Below the pieces are notes generated by a model, which was given only the letters and a program-made list of their open reading frames with translations, was not told where the DNA came from and made no database searches. Position numbers and translations under genes: made by a program. Source: Methanocaldococcus sp. 28A (lineage in GTDB: Archaea; AGJL01; Methanococci; Methanococcales; Methanocaldococcaceae). Taken from it: a DNA stretch of 64,000 nt. The stretch lies in NCBI GenBank assembly GCA_049852185.1, contig CP187540.1. One strand, written 5' to 3'. Below are positions 11,121 through 63,072 of this stretch, one piece after another; the stretch's first letter is position 1, and each line of letters begins with the position of its first letter.

Positions 11121-11175
11121 AATTATGTTTTTAGATGCATGTTTATTTATAATATCACCCCTCAGTGTTATGTCA

Positions 11176-11271
11176 TAGGACTTCCTTAGTTTATATATTA
11201 AACTTGTAACTTTGACACCTTTGGGTGTTTATATTCAATTACAATATATATTTATTCATGCGAAAGTCTTA
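11176..11271. mobile_element. MITE family A copy
   Basis: Ends TAGGACTTCC / TGCGAAAGTCTTA, internal GACACC-TTTG-GGTGTT palindrome. Confidence 0.6.
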
Positions 11272-11470
11272 TTAAAGATAGACATACATTGCATAAAGAA
11301 GAAATTCTTACTCCAATCTATATCTATTTAGTCAAAGAAAATATCTTATTCCTTAACCTCATTAAATCTCTAAAAACTCAATCTTTCTTTGTTTGGAATA
11401 CTATACAGAAAGTATCTTTAATTCATTTGAGTTTATATTAGAGTAATAGTATATTATAGCTGGTGGTAAT

Positions 11471-47863: not shown

Positions 47864-47868
47864 TATTA

Positions 47869-47954
47869 TAGGACTTTCGCAGGAATAAATATTTTTTGGA
47901 CATGGACACCTTAAAGGTGTCTAAATTCCAAATTAATATATAAAGAAAGTCCTA
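47869..47954. mobile_element. MITE family A copy
   Basis: TAGGACTTTCGCAGGAATAAAT ... GACACC-TTAAA-GGTGTC ... GAAAGTCCTA. Confidence 0.7.
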
Positions 47955-47960
47955 TAATAT

Positions 47961-52439: not shown

Positions 52440-53134
52440 GAGGTTGTCAAGATAAGGATTAAATAAATATGTGTAAATAAAGGAAGATATGAAACTTACG
52501 ATAGAAACGTTAAAAGAAAGGATTAAGAAGATAGTTAAGAGGAATAAGAAGTCGATAGAGATTAAAATCTTAGCAGGAATTTTGTATTATCTGGGATTAT
52601 CGTTAAGAAAGGTTAGTTTGTTTCTTTCACGGTTTGAGAGCATAAGCCATGAATCGGTTAGAATATATTACCACAAGATTAAAGATATTTTAAACGAGCC
52701 TGAAAGAAAGACAAGAAACCTAATTGCAATCGATGAAACTAAACTAAAGCTTGGAAATGAAACTATTTATGTATGGTCTGCTATCGATGTGGAGTCTAAA
52801 GAATGTTTGGGTATCTATGTCTCTAAAACAAGATGTTATCTCGATACTATGTTATTCGTAAGAAGGATATTAAAATTTTGCTCGAATAAACCAAAAATTT
52901 TGGTTGATGGTGGTAAATGGTATCCGTGGGCTCTACAGAGATTAGGCTTAAAATTCGAAAGAGTTCGATTCGGTTTAAGAAATTGTGTCGAAAGTTTCTT
53001 CTCTCTACTCAAACGAAGAACCAAATCTTTCTATAACCGATTCCCTAATAACTCTAAATTCTCATCTGTCATTAGTTGGCTTGAATCTTTCTCCTCTTTC
53101 TATAACTTCTTCCTTTACTTATCTTGACATCGTC
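52440..53134 (+). mobile_element. IS6-family insertion sequence with 9-bp target duplication
   Basis: IRs GAGGTTGTCAAGATAAG / CTTATCTTGACATCGTC; ACGAAAGTT at 52431-52439 and 53135-53143. Confidence 0.9.
52489..53127 (+). CDS. IS6-family transposase
   Basis: [28 protein letters not shown]. Confidence 0.92.
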
Positions 53135-55195: not shown

Positions 55196-55903
55196 CTATT
55201 CACTATATTTCTTAACAACTTTTGTTTGGACATTTCCTTTGGTTATTTTGTTTAGATGAGCATAGAACTCTGCTTCAATACCACTTGGTATTTCAATTAA
55301 TACAATTAAAGAACCATCTGGTTGCCATTCTTCTTGTTTAACAGCTCCAAATTGATATAAAGCATTATATGCCTTAGAAGCAAATTCTGCAGGAATTTTG
55401 ACAGCAATATCTCTCTTTTCAAATCTAATTGGTAAAAGTTTTTTAAGCTTTTTAACAATTTCAGGAACTTGTTCTTCAGCACTTTTGTAAATGTCAATAT
55501 TAATTCTTAACTCTTCAATTGCCTTTTCAATTCTATGTGGTGGATGTGGAGTATCTGTTTGTGGGTTTATGGTGTTTCTACTAATTATGGTTATAATTTG
55601 TCTTTTCTTTTGTTCTCTAATTTCTTCTCTCTGCTTAGCAGTTAATTGAACTTGACCTTTTAATATAATTTTTTTAGCAATTTCTTTAACATCAGTAGTC
55701 CCAAAAACTTTTAATAAAATATCTTCAGGGGCTTTTTCCCCTTTATTTGCGTCTCTAAACACTACTTCAACAGCTAAAAGCTCATCCATATCTACATTTT
55801 GACCTTCTTTAAGTTTAGCTGCTAAATATGGGTCAACTAAAATTTCAAATTTTTCGCCATGTGAATTATATCTTGCAATTACAGCCTCTTCTAAGGACAC
55901 CAT
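55196..55903 (-). CDS. Ribosome maturation factor SBDS/Sdo1
   Basis: AVIARY, GEKFEI, GQVQLT, PHPP. Confidence 0.93.
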
Positions 55904-55945
55904 AATATCCCTCCCTACATTATATAAATGTTTCGGATTATCAAT

Positions 55946-56220
55946 TTAAATATTTTCTCTTTTTTCATTTAAGCCCAAATATAATGTATAGTACTGCAGT
56001 ATAATTGTCATCTTTCCAATATAGTTTGGGGAGTAATGTCTCCATAACCTATTGTTTATTTTTGGATTTGCTCCATTCTCAGCCAACCCTATAAAACGTG
56101 ACAATATGAAACTAAATATTTAAATTATTGTTATAAAGTTAAGAGTTTCAGAATATATCAAATAATATAGTTTTAATTAACCCTAAACTGACAAATGCTG
56201 ATGCTGTTGTTGATTGTAAT
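55946..56220 (-). pseudogene. Potassium channel remnant
   Basis: One frame reads LAENGANPKINN; a shifted frame reads TIGYGDITPQT (selectivity filter near 56023-56055); the pore helix is missing; ends approximate. Confidence 0.65.
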
Positions 56221-56316
56221 GAATAAAAATGGTTTTAGAAAAATATTTTAATATGGAAAAATATAATACACTAAGAATAATGTAATTATAATTTTAATTT
56301 TATGTAGGTGGAGATA

Positions 56317-56910
56317 ATGGAACTTGAAGAAGATCTAAGGAGGACTGTAGAATTTCATGGACATCTTTGTGTTGGGTTGGCTTTAGGTTATAGAGTAGCA
56401 AAATATGTTAAAAAATATTATAAAAGGTCTGAAGATGAAGAACTAGTAGCAATAGTATATAATAACTCATGTAGTGTGGATGCTATTCAGTATTTGTTAG
56501 GTTGTACATTTGGTAAAGGGAATTTAATATTTAAAGATTATGGTAAGCATGTATATATCTTTTTTTCAAGAGAAAATGAAAATAAAAAAGGATTAAAAAT
56601 AACTTTTAAAGATTTTTTATTTGAAGAAATAAATGAAACAAGAGATTTATTAAAAGATATTGAAAACCCTGAAGAAAAGAAAAAATATATTGAAGATTTA
56701 AAAAATAAATGTATAGAGAAAATTCTAAGTCTATCAGATGAGGATCTTTTAATTATAAAAGAAGTAGAAATTCCTGAACCTAAAAAAGCTAAAATTTATC
56801 CATCAATTAAATGTGAAGAGTGTGGAGAGTATTTTATGGAAATTAAAGGAAGACTGATTAATGGAAAAATAGTTTGTATAGAATGTTTTAAAAAATTAAT
56901 AGAAAAATAA
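56317..56910 (+). CDS. FmdE-family protein with C-terminal zinc finger
   Basis: FHGHLCVGLALG, CSVDAIQ-GCTFGKGN, CEECGE...CIEC. Confidence 0.9.
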   Translation: MELEEDLRRTVEFHGHLCVGLALGYRVAKYVKKYYKRSEDEELVAIVYNNSCSVDAIQYLLGCTFGKGNLIFKDYGKHVYIFFSRENENKKGLKITFKDFLFEEINETRDLLKDIENPEEKKKYIEDLKNKCIEKILSLSDEDLLIIKEVEIPEPKKAKIYPSIKCEECGEYFMEIKGRLINGKIVCIECFKKLIEK

Positions 56911-56926
56911 AAAATAAAAAAGATTC

Positions 56927-57526
56927 TTAAACTGATACTTTTTGTTTTGAGAAATAATATGATCTGATAAATTTAGCCACATATCTTGCTACATAATCTC
57001 CAACGAATCCAGATACTATTGATAATATTAACGCAATAATTACTCCTGATAAAGTATAGTATGATGACCAGTGAGGATATACTGCTATAGTATAGTAACA
57101 AATCCAATTAATAATCATAAATACCGCAAGTCCTACAGCACCATTAAATCTCTCTGTTAAGTAACCCAGAACTAATGCAGATATAATTCCAATAATACTA
57201 TACCATGTAGGAACTACAATACTAAACCATGGGCCCTCTAAAAGATAAAATGAGGCCAGTAATAATGAAACAACAATTCCATAATATTTTCCACATAACT
57301 CCTTAGCAAGAGTTATCCAGAATATATAGTATATCCCTCCAAATATTGCAGGTCCTAGGAATGGAGCATGTAACCAGGATGCGAATGTACTTTCTCCTCC
57401 AGCTGCAAGACTTATAAAATACCCAATACTTGCGAATATAAAGGAAACTCCAAGTTTAGCGATACTATTTGTGATTACTGGAGTGTGCTCATTTACATTA
57501 CCAGATACAGTATCTACAGATGTCAT
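56927..57526 (-). CDS. Integral membrane protein (about 6 TM), ECF S-component-like size and topology
   Basis: 199-aa hydrophobic protein whose start overlaps the radical SAM gene end; family uncertain. Confidence 0.6.
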   Translation of the reverse strand: MTSVDTVSGNVNEHTPVITNSIAKLGVSFIFASIGYFISLAAGGESTFASWLHAPFLGPAIFGGIYYIFWITLAKELCGKYYGIVVSLLLASFYLLEGPWFSIVVPTWYSIIGIISALVLGYLTERFNGAVGLAVFMIINWICYYTIAVYPHWSSYYTLSGVIIALILSIVSGFVGDYVARYVAKFIRSYYFSKQKVSV

Positions 57527-58334
57527 TTTTTTTCACCATCTTTTTTATATATTGAATATGTCTTTTCCTTAATTCACTATATGAAGTTCTTGCATCTCCT
57601 AAAGAGTCTTCAGTTAGATAAACACACGGAGATTGCATACAATCCCATCGAACAAATATACAGTTTAGTAATATTCTACAGGGCGTAGTATGAGGAAGTG
57701 GTGGATAGATTTTTATTTTATTTTTATATTTTGACAATAAATTAGTTAAAAATTCTTTTTCTTCTTTTGACGTTAATCCATACTTTACATCAGGATCTAC
57801 TCCATAGATATCAAATAATCTATGTAACACAATTCCATCAACACCTAATTCTATCCCTACATCTATAATTTCTGGAATATGGTCTAAATTATCCTTGAAC
57901 ATAGTAACATCAATATAGGTAACTAATGGAATATCCCTTTCATTTCTCTCCTCAATAAGTTTTTTTATATTTTCTAAAACTTTTTCTTTTCCATCTAATG
58001 AAAATATACCAAATGCGATTTCGTCTAATCCACTATTTAATATTTCTTCTAATCTTTTATCGAGTAATGTTCCATTAGTACAAAGACTGGCTTTAATGTT
58101 TAACGATTTTACATAGGAGACCATTTTAAATAAATCTGGATGAAGAAGACATTCACCCCAACCATGCAACGCCACTTCATTAAAATCTTTAAGAGGCAAT
58201 TTTTTGAAATCTTCAAATGACATATACCCTACAGGTCTATTTAAATGACGTCTCATACAAATTTTACAGTTACTATTACAGTCATTAGTCGTCTCCACTT
58301 GTAATATTTTAGGCTTTATTATAAATGAAATCAT
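57498..58334 (-). CDS. Radical SAM protein with SPASM/Twitch-like C-terminal Cys domain
   Basis: CNSNCKIC, HGWGE, TNG, C-terminal PC...SPC...CRYC. Confidence 0.88.
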   Translation of the reverse strand: MISFIIKPKILQVETTNDCNSNCKICMRRHLNRPVGYMSFEDFKKLPLKDFNEVALHGWGECLLHPDLFKMVSYVKSLNIKASLCTNGTLLDKRLEEILNSGLDEIAFGIFSLDGKEKVLENIKKLIEERNERDIPLVTYIDVTMFKDNLDHIPEIIDVGIELGVDGIVLHRLFDIYGVDPDVKYGLTSKEEKEFLTNLLSKYKNKIKIYPPLPHTTPCRILLNCIFVRWDCMQSPCVYLTEDSLGDARTSYSELRKRHIQYIKKMVKKNDICRYCIW

Positions 58335-58468
58335 ATTATTCACATTATAATTTTTTAAACTTTTTAAAATTTTTATTAATTAATTTTATTATTATTTATT
58401 AATATCAACATTAAATTGGGGTATTAAAATAATTTATATAAAAAAATTAAAAATAAAAGACCAAGATG

Positions 58469-58621
58469 TTATGATCTACTTAAGACTGGAATTTTTAATG
58501 AATCTTTTATAGCTAATAACATAGCTCCTACTAAGGCGGCAATTCCTACAACTTGTGCAATTGAGAATGCAGTTATTATAGTTGATGCTGAAACTGTAGT
58601 TACTGAAACTGGAGCACACAT
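58469..58621 (-). CDS. Small hydrophobic peptide B (50 aa, MCAP start)
   Basis: MCAPVSVTTVSASTIITAFSIAQVVGIAALVGAMLLAIKDSLKIPVLSRS; GGAGGTGA RBS. Confidence 0.85.
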   Translation of the reverse strand: MCAPVSVTTVSASTIITAFSIAQVVGIAALVGAMLLAIKDSLKIPVLSRS

Positions 58622-58670
58622 ATTTCTCACCTCCAAAAAATTTTATAAAAATTTAAAAATATATAAAGAC

Positions 58671-58835
58671 TTAGTTTGAAGAGACACTTTTAGCTTTTGC
58701 AATTTCTGAAGCTTTAGCTGAAGTTATTGCCATAATTCCTACAAGTCCTAAAACTATCATTCCTATTATTTGTGGGAGGACTAATCCAAGAGTTGGAACA
58801 CCAGTTCCAGTAGTTATTGCTATTGGAGCACACAT
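58671..58835 (-). CDS. Small hydrophobic peptide A (54 aa, MCAP start)
   Basis: MCAPIAITTGTGVPTLGLVLPQIIGMIVLGLVGIMAITSAKASEIAKAKSVSSN; GGAGGTGA RBS. Confidence 0.85.
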   Translation of the reverse strand: MCAPIAITTGTGVPTLGLVLPQIIGMIVLGLVGIMAITSAKASEIAKAKSVSSN

Positions 58836-58880
58836 ATTTCTCACCTCCAAAAAATTTTACAATAATTAAATGTTACTTGC

Positions 58881-58935
58881 AAATATATAAACTTTTCTGT
58901 GAAAAATTTTTATAAAAATCATAAAATTTATGATT
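58881..58935 (-). promoter_or_regulatory. Putative BRE/TATA promoter and palindromic operator for the MCAP peptide genes
   Basis: Minus strand AAAAGTTTATATATTT at 58881-58896; AATCATAAA-A-TTTATGATT at 58917-58935. Confidence 0.45.
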
Positions 58936-58991
58936 AATAATTATGTAAAGTAATAATATAATGTTATAAAAATAAAAAGAAGAAAGTTAGT

Positions 58992-60404
58992 TTAGTGCTC
59001 TATTTGGTACAAGACAGCTGGTAAAGGAGTTTCATTTAATTTACCTTCTTTTGCAAGTTTTAATATATTCTCTGCCTCAGGTTTGAAATATTTTGCCCAA
59101 CCGACAAGTTGTGCTTTATCATACCATGTTTTTAAATTTAACTCATCTACAGCTTTTTGGGCATATTTTATTGAGTCATTCTTATCTCCTAATTTAGCAT
59201 ATGTAAACGCAGCCATTTCAGTACCTAAGAAGTAATAGTTTTCATGTGCAATTGATCTGTCAGAGATGTTCCAGTAGTTTGAAAGGTATAAGAAGTCATT
59301 TAATGCTTTTTTGTAATAACTTTTATTTCCAGTGTATTCTCCAAGGTAGTAGTATGCCAATCCTCTTTCATAATGTCCTACTGGTAAGTCACCTGGATAG
59401 TGATCTCCACCATCTTCTGTCATTCCTGTAGAGTACTCAACATTTGCTAAAAGGTTTTTTATAGCATCTTTTTTATCTCCTCTTTTCATATCTACCATAG
59501 CAATGTATCTGTGAGCCTCTCCAATATATGGTGAATCAGGATAATCATTTATTATTTTATTACATAAGTTAAGTACCTCATCATATTTACCAAGTTCATA
59601 AGCGGAAACAGCAGTAGGCATATATCCTAAATCCATAGCCCAACCATATTTTGGTCCATAATCGTCAATAAATTTATGACAGTAGTAATATGCAGTTGAG
59701 TAATTTGCATTACCAAATTCTGAATTTATTATGTATGACCAAACATAGTGCTCGTATGCTGGACCTTCCGGTGCAATATTTACTGATAAATTATAGTAAT
59801 ACAATGCTGTTGGGAATTCCCCCATAGCCAAATAAGTTCTTGCAGTATTTGCATATAACGTTGCTAAAGCCCCTTTTCCACCATATTTTTCAAGTACGGG
59901 AATATTTTGCATTGCTTTAAAGTAGTATGGTAATACTTTATTTTTTCTATCAGGATATGAATCATAGTAGAAGTAATTAGCATCTCCAATTCTTACATAA
60001 CCTAATGCTTTTGCTTCAGGCATTAAGTTCATAAATCTCTCAACAGCATAGATACCTTCATGATAATATTTATCTTCCTGTTCTAAGCCATCTTGTTTGT
60101 ATGTATGGTATGGGAATTTATCATAATGGTGGAAGTGATCTTGATTGATATACACATTCGCTAAATTGTACCAAGCCCATGGATAGTTTGGATCAGCCTC
60201 TATAGCCTTTTTTAATAATTGTTCCGCGATTTTATACTCTGTCATGTTACTATTTGCTATAGCATCTCTAACTATTGGAACTGCTTCATTAGTATATTTT
60301 ATAGCAGTTGCTTCTGCAGAATATGTTTTGTAAGCATCTACTGCTAAACCTAACGCCAATGCAATGCATATAATACCTATTATTAACTTTACGTAATTTT
60401 TCAT
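58992..60404 (-). CDS. Exported or membrane-anchored Tyr-rich tetratricopeptide-repeat protein
   Basis: N-terminal signal/TM; TPR patterns KAIEADPNYPWAWYNLANVY and LGKYDEV...YPDSPY. Confidence 0.8.
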   Translation of the reverse strand: MKNYVKLIIGIICIALALGLAVDAYKTYSAEATAIKYTNEAVPIVRDAIANSNMTEYKIAEQLLKKAIEADPNYPWAWYNLANVYINQDHFHHYDKFPYHTYKQDGLEQEDKYYHEGIYAVERFMNLMPEAKALGYVRIGDANYFYYDSYPDRKNKVLPYYFKAMQNIPVLEKYGGKGALATLYANTARTYLAMGEFPTALYYYNLSVNIAPEGPAYEHYVWSYIINSEFGNANYSTAYYYCHKFIDDYGPKYGWAMDLGYMPTAVSAYELGKYDEVLNLCNKIINDYPDSPYIGEAHRYIAMVDMKRGDKKDAIKNLLANVEYSTGMTEDGGDHYPGDLPVGHYERGLAYYYLGEYTGNKSYYKKALNDFLYLSNYWNISDRSIAHENYYFLGTEMAAFTYAKLGDKNDSIKYAQKAVDELNLKTWYDKAQLVGWAKYFKPEAENILKLAKEGKLNETPLPAVLYQIEH

Positions 60405-60522
60405 ACATAACCCCCCTACTATTTACTAAATTATTTCTTAATTGTAATAAAATTAACATGATATAAGTTGGAGGTAGAGGTATATATATGTAACTATTTG
60501 ATATATCCAAATGTGTATATTA

Positions 60523-60830
60523 TTTTTGAGATAAACCTCGTAAGGAGTTTTAAAATCACTACGTAGTAAGCGAGCAACGAAAACCTTAGGTTTTCGTCTA
60601 ATCTAAAGAAAGATATGGTTTTATTTTACTATGCCATTTATTAAACTTATTTAGTCGATATTCTACTTCTCTATTTATTCGTTCAACTTTATCAATTGTT
60701 TTAGGATGTCTAACGGAAGTTCTTATGTGTTCAATATTATGCTCTGCAAGAAACTTCTGGAATTTGGATATACCTCATTTTGCAGGAACGAATTGAGTTC
60801 CATTGTCTGTTAATATTTTCTCTAGCAATC
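60523..60830 (-). pseudogene. IS481-like integrase-core transposase remnant
   Basis: Minus-strand ILTDNGTQF; 60524-60620 matches the reverse complement of 31131-31180. Confidence 0.65.
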
Positions 60831-60943
60831 TATATGACGATTTGAAACAGTTGAGCAGATATAACAACAAATCACAAAAATTAAATAAAGGGAAAGTAAT
60901 AGAAGAATTTCTAAAATAAAAGAGTTTAAGATATACGTTTTAT

Positions 60944-61708
60944 TTATTCTTTATTTTTTTCTTCTGTTCTCTTATTTTCTTCATTTAATTTATTTTTAAC
61001 TTTCTCTATGAGTTTTTTTATTTCTTCTACAGAGATTTTCTTAAATTGTGAATCTTTAACTGTTATTACACAAACATCAACATTTTCTGCTTTTATATCT
61101 TCATTTGCTTTTGCTAATGCAGTTATGGCTAACTCTAAACCTTCGTCTAATGTTATATCATCTTTATACTCTTTTTCTAACAACTCCATAACTACAGGTC
61201 TTCCACTACCAATTGCAGTCGCTTTATATTCAATTAAAGCCCCACTTGGGTCTGTTTCAAATAATCTTGCTTCATTTTTATCAATTCCAGCAATTAATAA
61301 TGAAACTCCAAATGGTCTAACTCCTCCATGTTGTGTATATGCTTGTTTAATATCGCAAATTTTTTTTGCTAACATTTCAATTGATATCTCTTCTCCATAA
61401 GTTAATCTGTAAATCTGAGCTTCCAATCTCGCTCTATCAATTAAGACTCTTGCATCAGCGACTAATCCAGATGTAGCAGCTGCTACATGGTCATCAATTT
61501 GGAATATCTTCTCTATTGACCTAATTTTTACGAGTTTGCTTGTTATTCTTCTATCAACCGCTAATACAACACCATCTTTACAGGCAATACCTATCGCTGT
61601 AGTTCCTCTCCTTACAGCCTCTCTTGCATATTCTACTTGATATAATCTACCCTCCGGACTAAATACTGTAATTGCTCTATCATAAGCACTTGGTGGTACC
61701 ATTTGCAT
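60944..61708 (-). CDS. psmA: Proteasome subunit alpha
   Basis: [31 protein letters not shown]. Confidence 0.97.
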
Positions 61709-62389: not shown

Positions 62390-63072
62390 TAGAAAATTTT
62401 TCGTTAATAATCTATTGTGATATTCTTTTTAAGGAATATTCGTTGCTTAATCATGTGAAGGAAATTATAGACTTTACTATTAACGATTTAGAAATAAATC
62501 CATCTAATATTGTAGTACTTACCGATAGAGAGTTTAAAAATTTTGAAATAATAAAAATTTTTGAAAAATACGGATGTAATTACATAAGCTTTATTCCGAA
62601 AAATGATAAAGTTAAATACTATCTTGAGGATGAATATAAAAAAGAAGAAAAATGGAAATTCGATTATGTTATCGATAGAAATACTATTCCTAAATTAGTT
62701 ATTGCTGAGGACGAAATAATTACAAACAACGAAAGAAAAAAGGTATATTATACCTTTTTAACTAATATCAACTTTGAAAATCAAGAATCTTACATAAAAA
62801 TGTATAAAAAACGATGGAATATTGAAACACAATTTAGAATGCTTAAAGATGCAGTTATAAAAACGAATTTAACATCTATAAAAGTTAGGTTGTTCCTTTT
62901 TATGCTTAAATGCGTTATTCATAACTTATAGATTAAAATAATAAAAAAGAATGTGTTTTTTTAAAATTCTTCATAATCGAAATATGTAAGTTATTAAATA
63001 AATTCGATTATTCACTCATGGTTATGCGTAATACTCGGTTGTGTATGTCTAATGCATATTCATAAGATACTG
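62390..63072 (+). pseudogene. ISH3-like transposase remnant (3' half with right end)
   Basis: ORF 62443-62931 with LTDREF and YKKRWNIETQFR; right end ...AGATACTG as at 52412. Confidence 0.7.

Follow-up and report, generated by a model that had tools for sequence, protein, structure and literature searches.

Two short open reading frames (ORFs) lie in tandem between a gene for a tetratricopeptide-repeat (TPR) protein and a gene for a radical S-adenosylmethionine (radical-SAM) enzyme in Methanocaldococcus sp. 28A, and both were missing from the ORF listing that accompanied the initial annotation of the 64,000-nucleotide stretch of contig CP187540.1 analyzed here (the window). The locus raises the question of whether these frames, pepA and pepB, are genes and, if so, what a membrane peptide that begins Met-Cys-Ala-Pro does beside such an enzyme. 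Judged by their pattern of sequence conservation, pepA and pepB are real genes. They belong to a conserved archaeal cassette consisting of one to three M-C-x-P peptides, the radical-SAM enzyme, a membrane protein that we call c1, usually a TPR protein, and sometimes an FmdE-domain protein. In our preferred reading, to which we give a probability of about one-half, the products lack a leader and stay anchored in the membrane, and the radical-SAM enzyme modifies the Cys-x-Pro head at their N-terminus; this reading is built on gene order, conservation, and structural models.

Two Paralogous Peptide Genes under Purifying Selection

pepA and pepB are identical over 36 nt, comprising a 24-nt leader and the first four codons (58824-58859 and 58610-58645 in the alignment), and beyond codon 4 their DNA has diverged, with 12 of 36 aligned residues the same (BLASTP E 2e-4). 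The initial annotation's description of two paralogous small peptides with an identical 5′ leader was thus borne out. The MCAP-x3-TT start, the Q-(I/V)-(I/V)-G segment, and the Lys-containing tail that it listed are present in both translations, MCAPIAITTGTGVPTLGLVLPQIIGMIVLGLVGIMAITSAKASEIAKAKSVSSN (54 aa) for pepA and MCAPVSVTTVSASTIITAFSIAQVVGIAALVGAMLLAIKDSLKIPVLSRS (50 aa) for pepB, and Cys2 is the sole Cys of each. A perfect Shine-Dalgarno sequence, GGAGGTGA, lies 7 nt 5′ of both ATG codons. The 25-nt core of the shared stretch, GGAGGTGAGAAATATGTGTGCTCCA, has two exact copies in the window (58824-58848 and 58610-58634) and two in the whole 1.556-Mb genome; dinucleotide-preserving shuffles with two matches to it numbered 0 of 100. 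Read from the upstream in-frame TTG, the ORFs measure 59 and 55 aa, below the 60-aa default of the ORF listing. Stretches covering the Shine-Dalgarno sequence and spacer are alike within a genome (identical here and at loci L050 and L053) and different between genomes, so the identical leader is probably the product of local gene conversion over a conserved Shine-Dalgarno sequence and peptide head.

The ratio of nonsynonymous to synonymous substitution (dN/dS, Nei-Gojobori), a check that the annotation had proposed, ranged from 0.03 to 0.84 over 29 orthologous pairs, not one of which reached 1. It was 0.13-0.84 for pepA and 0.13-0.73 for pepB (10 Methanococcales pairs each) and 0.03 in three Archaeoglobaceae-type pairs. 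At conserved positions of 77 peptide genes, synonymous codons are used freely: Cys is encoded by TGT in 52 and TGC in 25, and all four Ala codons and all four Pro codons occur. Together, these two observations argue that selection acts on the protein. We also built a profile from 14 peptides of seven Methanococcales loci and ran it, free of any motif requirement, against 1.84 billion representative proteins. It retrieved 13 proteins at E<=1e-3, all of 44-60 aa and all with M-C-[A/V/T]-P, which stands at residue 1 in 12 of them and follows a 9-residue annotated upstream extension in the other. Cys2, on whose conservation in orthologues the annotation had staked its claim, is kept in 13 of 13. 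Where such peptides have been annotated, they appear as “hypothetical protein,” as in the case of Metvu_0465 from Methanocaldococcus vulcanius M7. Pfam and NCBIfam searches with the peptides returned chance-level rows only (NuoJ at 16.5 bits where the cutoff is 284; ATP1G1/TraL at E 0.15), the ESM Atlas held nothing usable for pepB, and Rfam gave zero families matching 58300-59000 at E<=1.

These data bear directly on the possibility that the ORFs are chance or non-functional frames, or remnants resembling type I toxins, and that the shared leader is a duplicated regulatory DNA element. The frames are short and unnamed, as such an account would expect, and carry no more than the “hypothetical” label where annotated. 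Nonetheless, amino-acid conservation extends over about ten archaeal lineages while synonymous codons turn over, dN/dS is below 1 in every pair, and the Shine-Dalgarno sequence is perfect and correctly spaced, with no Rfam match in the region. We regard this account as extremely improbable; it is already contradicted by the conservation, dN/dS, and codon data.

Strict Association with a Radical-SAM Gene

The peptides and the radical-SAM gene strictly co-occur and adjoin. Orthologues of the enzyme (67-96% identity) were found in 7 of 40 related Methanococcales genomes, and in those seven, as in the window’s genome, two M-C-[A/T]-P ORFs lie just upstream of it. The peptide profile matched 8 of 40 Methanococcales genomes, the same eight that hold a radical-SAM orthologue, with two matches each, and found peptides in 0 of the 32 genomes negative for the enzyme. 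All seven genomes of genus g4, perhaps Methanococcus, are without the cassette. In the family of genome G041 (the source of locus L092, titled Archaeoglobaceae), 23 of 92 genomes hold the enzyme. The peptide is present in 22 of these 23 and in none of the 69 that are negative for the enzyme. In each of the 22, the peptide (B-type, profile A5) adjoins the enzyme gene; the one exception, G068, has a partial radical-SAM match at a contig edge. In five genomes from five lineages, 8 of 8 peptide matches fell on the cassette contig.

The enzyme family forms 29 clusters at >=43% identity in a collection of 5.8 billion proteins. A scan of one genome per prokaryotic species gave 66 loci, 54 of which (L049-L102) are >=38% identical to the window’s radical-SAM enzyme. 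All 54 are archaeal and span about ten lineages, named in their records as Methanococcales, Desulfurococcales, Thermoproteales, Archaeoglobaceae, ANME-1/Methanophagales, Methanosarcinales, Altiarchaeota, Micrarchaeota, Baldrarchaeota, Thermoplasmata, and others. The remaining 12 are generic radical-SAM matches (22-39% identity over part of the length), mostly bacterial. ATG-started M-C-x-P ORFs on the same strand within 1.5 kb upstream occur in 48 of the 54 loci (one ORF in 31, two in 15, three in 2), and with GTG starts (L058) and a whole-locus scan included, 52 of 54 have peptide genes. The ANME-1-like loci L091, L100, and L101 carry theirs after the TPR genes, and the two loci with none, L090 and L094, are contigs of 4.3 and 4.9 kb. 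The cassette is also present in Methanocaldococcus sp. FS406-22.

Some loci depart from the usual arrangement. A short M-C-T-L frame overlaps the start of the radical-SAM gene in five ANME-1-like loci (L091, L094, L100, L101, and L090; 15 codons in L091), and, lying where other lineages have the peptide gene, it may be a relic. Extra or stray M-C-x-P genes lie off the usual position in L058 (minus strand, 525), at L072:5424-5582, at G071:C64:710-847, and at G079:C16:1700-1834. In one Methanococcales relative (L010; G024:C1:66053-66882), the radical-SAM gene is broken by a single TAA and both peptide genes are intact; a public 206-aa protein that matches this interrupted enzyme is named as from Methanothermococcus okinawensis.

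A Conserved Head on a Predicted Single-Pass Membrane Peptide

The 54 radical-SAM loci yielded 77 peptides (75 unique) of 45-76 aa. An M-C-x-P ORF in L074 (start 8180), 4 kb away and unlike the family, was dropped from all counts. Among the unique peptides, the head reads A68/V5/T2 at position 3, V44/I19/A8/T4 at position 5, S57/A16/T1/E1 at position 6, V56/A13/I5 at position 7, and T57/S13/A3/I2 at position 8, and it is far better conserved than the remainder of the peptide. The annotation had singled out conservation at the extreme N-terminus with no classical leader; this is correct and is the unusual point of the family. Each peptide has one hydrophobic stretch. The first charged residue falls at a median position of 39, and 75 of the 77 peptides have a C-terminal tail with net positive charge, a pattern that fits the N-out topology predicted earlier. 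One Cys is found in 63 peptides and two in 14. Two old paralogue types can be told apart: type A with L-P-x-I in the helix, to which pepA belongs, and type B with S/N-Q-[IV]-L-[GA], represented by pepB. B-type peptides are present in nearly all lineages, and A-type peptides occur also in loci titled Archaeoglobaceae, Archaeoglobales, Thermoproteales, and “uncultured archaeon.”

A Radical-SAM Enzyme with a Predicted Auxiliary-Cluster Domain

Relatives of the enzyme start at an ATG three codons into the window’s frame (58334, M-I-S...), which is probably the true start. A 27-member alignment shows the cluster motif CNSNCKIC (CxxxCxxC), invariant C222, C240, C276, and C279, and a terminal Trp. 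The AlphaFold2 (AF2) model has a predicted local distance difference test score (pLDDT) of 92 and matches SuiB best (Z 23.3, rmsd 3.2, 267 residues), followed by BlsE (Z 21.3), PqqE (21.2), DesII (21.1), SkfB (20.9), MoaA (20.0), viperin (19.9), the anaerobic sulfatase-maturating enzyme anSME (19.6), and CteB (19.5). The best matches of the model are SPASM/twitch enzymes, with peptide modifiers among them. Because residues 1-279 of the model align only to residues 94-423 of SuiB, the enzyme is without the recognition element (RRE) of enzymes that modify peptides made by ribosomes and altered after translation (RiPPs). An absent RRE fits recognition of the peptide core itself.

By sequence, the enzyme stays below the cutoff of every NCBIfam family (AlbA, 29.4 bits against 850; WgkB, 23.7 against 650), and the anSME model is absent among the 19 families that it matches at E<=1e-5. 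The best curated matches for 27 of 27 family members are TIGR04317 (best E 7.7e-35) and TIGR04311 (5.9e-30), for which the window’s enzyme scores 109.4 bits against a cutoff of 380 and 61 against 400. A Protein Data Bank (PDB) sequence search with the family profile gave generic matches only (BlsE 1.3e-8, GDGT-MAS 5e-7, BtrN, NifB, and SkfB).

A Transporter-Fold Membrane Protein Coupled to the Enzyme

Clustering the ORFs of 55 loci for neighbor genes placed c1 (typically ∼185 aa) in 41. Its start overlaps the radical-SAM stop in 39 of the 41, by 22-35 nt and by exactly 29 nt in 34, across phyla (57498-57526 in the window). Of the 14 loci without c1, 5 end within 44 nt of the radical-SAM gene, and 9, mainly ANME-1-like, extend at least 1.3 kb downstream of it and truly lack c1. 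Pfam and NCBIfam gave zero families for c1 at E<=1. In the AF2 model (pLDDT 88), c1 shows the six-helix fold of the substrate-binding (S) components of energy-coupling factor (ECF) transporters: the 13 best-scoring of 48,161 PDB representatives are without exception S components, with Z from 15.1 to 8.4 (5edl Z 15.1, rmsd 3.8, 161 residues; ThiT 11.9; 4m5c 9.6; BioY 8.4). CbiM (7.0) and BtuM (6.6) follow below them, Foldseek likewise ranks 5edl first (E 0.097, prob 1.00, TM 0.54), and Atlas neighbors of c1 carry PF09819 (ABC_cobalt). The invariant residues are P55, L95, W100, W141, and G173, with zero conserved Cys or His. The N-terminus, M-x-S-A-x-x-V-x-G-E, also has neither; we dropped it as a functional motif, as the overlapping 3′ end of the radical-SAM gene encodes the invariant C-x-x-C-x-W, and its conservation is probably a by-product of those codons.

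Structure prediction of c1 with pepB gave an ipSAE of 0.38 (runs 0.25, 0.38, and 0.39) against 0.00 for the best of three controls, with at least 85% of contacts agreeing between runs and a partner pLDDT of at least 62; the verdict was “weak support.” Of 80 solved complexes, 58 attain the mark used, as do 2 of 110 mismatched pairs; among scores up to 0.60, the solved complexes that pass number only 7 of the 80, along with both mismatches, counts that hold only roughly for c1-pepB as custom alignments were used.

The fold of c1 brings in a different account, which we consider doubtful: the peptides could stay unmodified and serve, with c1 as the core, as accessory subunits of an uptake unit of ECF type, much like the small partners of metal-specific ECF transporters. 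Their N-terminal amine and Cys2 thiolate would then supply a metal or cofactor site in trans, and the radical-SAM enzyme would act on the small molecule or cofactor being transported. The structural neighbors of c1 point this way, as 4m5c is titled a truncated transition-metal transporter, CbiM is among the matches, and BtuM is a Cys-using B12 protein; so do the ABC_cobalt assignment of its Atlas neighbors, the c1-pepB score, and the closest curated relatives of the enzyme, which are putative maturases of metalloenzymes or a tungsten cofactor. The island described below further encodes an FmdE-domain protein (PF02663), a secreted anchored form of which occurs in 13 of 55 loci, and section 3.7 of PMC2954224 states that most PF02663 genes adjoin genes for metal-ion transporters. 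However, EcfT and EcfA are not a regular part of the cassette: in a search of the loci themselves, ABC ATPase ORFs of any kind occur in 7 of 55 and none in the window’s island. Moreover, c1 has no conserved Cys or His, the nine loci without it still hold peptide, radical-SAM, and TPR genes, and the strict partner of the peptide is the radical-SAM enzyme rather than c1. An eight-residue invariant head also exceeds what a two-residue chelator would need.

Proposed Modification of the Peptide Head

The following scheme, which we infer from this evidence, takes the peptide as substrate and proposes a type of chemistry, a task for c1, a final topology, and a physiological role. pepA and pepB would be translated as single-pass membrane peptides and would serve as substrates of the radical-SAM enzyme encoded just downstream. 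The invariant head, M-C-[A/V/T]-P-[V/I]-[S/A]-[V/A]-[T/S], would act as both recognition and reaction site, dispensing with a leader, and the SAM cluster of the RRE-free enzyme would abstract a hydrogen within it. The single auxiliary Fe-S cluster may engage Cys2, or the β-hydrogen of Cys2 may itself be abstracted, giving either an intramolecular thioether (-2 Da) or an oxidized Cys such as formylglycine (-18 Da). Through the 29-nt overlap, c1 would be produced together with the enzyme, and it would hold the transmembrane (TM) helix of the peptide at the membrane. Once finished, the head would face outward, next to the TPR protein and, in some lineages, the FmdE-domain protein, and there it would probably handle a thiophilic metal or metal cofactor.

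The initial annotation had offered three fates for an exposed N-terminal Cys (metal chelation, lipidation, or a thioether cross-link) and did not mention the neighboring radical-SAM enzyme with its auxiliary-cluster domain. This neighbor alters the balance: because both peptide genes lie directly upstream of such an enzyme, a thioether or other radical modification of Cys2 becomes the leading option. Metal chelation by Cys2 is possible. Lipidation is unsupported, with no lipid-transfer gene in the cassette.

Several points weigh against modification of the head. The small-molecule enzymes BlsE, DesII, MoaA, and viperin tie with the peptide modifiers in the fold ranking, so the fold is silent on a peptide substrate, and our attempt to tell the two kinds of substrate apart by fold failed on these tied Z scores. 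Curated families nearest to the enzyme comprise putative maturases of metalloenzymes or cofactors rather than of RiPPs. Head positions 1, 2, and 4 are invariant partly through our selection on them, and the independent support for them is the 13-protein profile search. Most peptides have a single Cys and Pro4 is the only invariant acceptor position, so a defined thioether partner is not evident. A head that ends up outside the cell means that a cytoplasmic enzyme must act before insertion. c1 seems dispensable in places, since nine loci lack it. Finally, neither a protease nor a dedicated exporter is a regular part of the cassette in the 55 loci.

A more elaborate version of head modification joins it to uptake, with the peptide supplying a prosthetic head of a new kind, anchored in the membrane: the radical-SAM enzyme, docked on c1, would modify the head at the membrane, c1 would topple the head across in the motion of ECF S components, and the head would capture a metal with the TPR and FmdE proteins. 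The metal or cofactor would be thiophilic (W, Mo, Ni, or Co) and would be captured in sulfidic, hot, anoxic habitats. We think this version, both in its mechanism and in its choice of metal, unlikely.

A Probably Mobile Island between SBDS and psmA

The cassette occupies an island flanked by SBDS (55196-55903) and the proteasome α gene psmA (60944-61708). SBDS adjoins psmA in three of five cassette-free relatives examined, one of which has a psmA 99-100% identical to the window’s. BLASTN homology to these three ends at 55935-55938 and resumes at 60938-60944, and these edges indicate that ∼5.0 kb was inserted between the two genes. The window’s radical-SAM enzyme is 81% identical to that of a Methanothermococcus metagenome-assembled genome (MAG), from another family, vs. 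66-72% to other Methanocaldococcus, which suggests transfer. The cassette is accessory and probably mobile.

Patchy spread (8 of 40 and 23 of 92 genomes), insertion into a site that stands empty in so close a relative, and the signs of transfer would also suit a weapon. In that account, the peptides would be a leaderless one- or two-peptide archaeocin, a membrane-active antimicrobial tailored by the adjoining radical-SAM enzyme, with c1 serving immunity or export; the tandem, paralogous, leaderless, hydrophobic, and cationic character of these 45-76 aa peptides agrees with it. Against this stand the very strong purifying selection in some lineages (the dN/dS of 0.03 above) and the TM-helix motifs kept across phyla, which are unusual for weapons. 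The cassette has neither exporter nor protease, a conserved membrane-anchored TPR partner is out of place in such systems, and an uncharged 38-residue N-terminal part with a basic tail resembles a resident membrane anchor. We judge an antimicrobial role distinctly unlikely and retain modification of a resident peptide as the better account.

At the psmA-side edge of the island, broken short ORFs at 60600-60900 look by eye like a transposase or integrase remnant. DDE transposase ORFs (PF13610 and PF01609) are found nearby at 52489-53127 (+) and 62443-62931 (+). An element of ∼95 nt from the SBDS-psmA spacer of relative G011 has copies of ∼80% identity at window positions 11175-11272 and 47867-47956; it is a small dispersed repeat.

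Neighboring Genes and Expression Signals

A TPR protein (cluster c2, ∼460 aa) is encoded in 36 of 55 loci, and its full-length members have an N-terminal TM anchor. The secreted FmdE-domain protein c4 carries a signal peptide and a C-terminal anchor and is distinct from the window’s cytosolic FmdE protein. We rejected the latter as a general cassette member: by tblastn, the nearest relative (L004/L049) alone has it adjacent, and other loci gave only weak matches to the secreted c4 type. ORF clusters c3, c5, c7, c8, c10, c11, c13, c14, and c15 are antisense and were treated as shadows of real genes. Pfam scans of the larger window ORFs between 48.6 and 63.8 kb showed no aldehyde-oxidoreductase gene. 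In four loci of one clade (L055:7089-7763, L057, L059, and L065, titled Thermoproteaceae/Thermoproteota), a DUF447 gene follows the TPR gene, and the TPR protein of this clade has 14 Cys vs. 1-7 in other full-length members.

The element AAAA(C/G)TTTATATA (TTTTATATA in L051) stands at the same place before pepA in five of five Methanococcales loci compared, and T-runs follow pepB in all five; the second TTTATATA, between the peptide genes, is particular to this genome and absent from the other four (Table 1). This arrangement fits one strong promoter for the peptides and attenuation before the enzyme gene. With a promoter-like element before pepA and T-runs after pepB, it suggests more peptide transcript than enzyme transcript.

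Table 1. Coordinates of the cassette, its genes, and its candidate expression signals in the window
Feature	Position	Strand	Description
Island	55939..60937	.	∼5.0 kb; six genes: FmdE/zinc-ribbon, c1, radical-SAM, pepB, pepA, TPR
FmdE domain + C4 zinc-ribbon protein	56308..56910	+	PF02663 4.3e-40; convergent with c1; within inserted island
c1	56927..57526	-	199-aa six-helix membrane protein, predicted ECF-transporter S-component fold; start overlaps radical-SAM stop by 29 nt
Radical-SAM enzyme	57498..58343	-	281 aa from GTG 58343; PF04055 1.2e-14; downstream of pepB
T-runs, coding strand	58430..58462	-	Just 3′ of pepB, before radical-SAM gene; resemble archaeal oligo-T terminator/attenuator
pepB	58469..58621	-	ATG 58621, stop 58469; 50 aa, MCAPVSVTT...; B-type; AQVVG motif
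pepB leader	58622..58645	-	24 nt with Shine-Dalgarno GGAGGTGA; same letters as pepA leader
Second TTTATATA	58660..58667	-	Between pepA and pepB
pepA	58671..58835	-	ATG 58835, stop 58671; 54 aa, MCAPIAITTG...; A-type; LPQI in TM helix; Lys-rich tail
pepA leader	58836..58859	-	24 nt with Shine-Dalgarno GGAGGTGA; same letters as pepB leader
Promoter-like element	58884..58899	-	Purine-rich stretch + TTTATATA, 49 nt before pepA ATG
TPR protein	58992..60404	-	470 aa; N-terminal TM helix anchor; TPR Pfam hits

Discussion

Among known systems, the cassette would work most like a radical-SAM-SPASM RiPP pair that fails two defining features, the leader and the RRE. As in the sactipeptide and ranthipeptide systems (SkfA/SkfB, SboA/AlbA, and CteA/CteB), SuiB, and PqqE, the genes directly upstream of a radical-SAM enzyme that has an auxiliary Fe-S domain at its C-terminus encode small Cys-containing peptides. 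Unlike the sactipeptide and ranthipeptide systems, however, the peptides here are leaderless, with the motif running from residue 1, have mostly a single Cys, and retain both a TM helix and a basic tail predicted to be cytoplasmic; the enzyme, for its part, has no RRE and reaches no curated RiPP-maturase cutoff, and the cassette has no protease or exporter.

anSME acts on the sulfatase motif C/S-x-P/A-x-R. It resembles the cassette enzyme in having a leaderless substrate, putative in the case of the cassette, with a short motif beginning Cys-x-Pro, in being a radical-SAM enzyme with auxiliary cluster(s), and in its structural match, although that Z score is tied with many. In contrast to the sulfatase motif, the +4 residue here is never Arg, and 73 of the 75 unique peptides have Ser or Ala there, the substrate would be a 50-aa membrane peptide instead of a sulfatase, and the enzyme is ∼100 residues shorter with four invariant C-terminal Cys.

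c1 shares its six-helix fold with ECF S components (YkoE-like 5edl, ThiT, RibU, 4m5c, CbiM, and BtuM), but it lies outside the curated S-component families, is translationally coupled to a radical-SAM enzyme, and belongs to a cassette without T and A components. The Ni/Co ECF units CbiMN and NikMN have a metal-chelating extreme N-terminus on the M component and a small partner with two TM segments. Here, by contrast, the conserved head is on a separate peptide with one hydrophobic stretch and bears Cys rather than His. The enzyme’s best sequence matches, TIGR04317 (tungsten cofactor oxidoreductase radical SAM maturase) and TIGR04311 (putative metalloenzyme maturase), offer a likeness from which it is set apart by scores far below both cutoffs. 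Tandem, paralogous, leaderless, cationic, hydrophobic peptides are a feature shared with leaderless two-peptide bacteriocins.

An archaeal precedent for a radical-SAM enzyme beside the gene for a Cys-bearing product is the Crp system of Methanococcus voltae. In the passages of PMC13692751 that describe it, the radical-SAM-SPASM enzyme CrpC installs ranthionine links in the Cys-rich CrpA and has an RRE and three clusters. The cassette enzyme differs from CrpC as described there in having no RRE and in having candidate substrates with one Cys, at residue 2. A preprint on archaeal bacteriocins (10.64898/2026.07.27.741052) concerns, in the text available, subtilosin homologues in Thermococcales. 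Our literature search on the cassette and its locus tags (Metvu_0463-0466 and MFS40622) found no description in the texts covered, although the supplements of PMC13692751 may name other archaeal candidates adjacent to radical-SAM genes, and in the literature on FmdE/FwdE/PF02663/COG2191 only the 2010 FmdE structure paper was relevant. The cassette is thus undescribed, lying outside the curated families and the literature searched. The question of function is testable because Methanocaldococcus sp. FS406-22 carries the cassette and has reported genetics, in a study of nif-associated genes in a hyperthermophilic methanogen (PMC8809328).

The association found here is confined to archaea and joins a leaderless candidate substrate, which would stay in the membrane and bears its motif from the initiator Met, to an enzyme coupled to a transporter-fold protein. 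In these respects the cassette stands apart. To our knowledge, nearly all known radical-SAM chemistry on peptides concerns bacterial natural products that depend on a leader and are secreted. If modification of the head is confirmed, the cassette would represent a novel architecture for a precursor, would put the ECF S-component fold to a new use, and would give a function to “hypothetical” small proteins such as Metvu_0465, which lie near or below gene-calling length cutoffs (e.g., 60 aa). Should toppling of the modified head also prove true, a RiPP-like modification would be at work in uptake machinery and not in the making of a secreted natural product.

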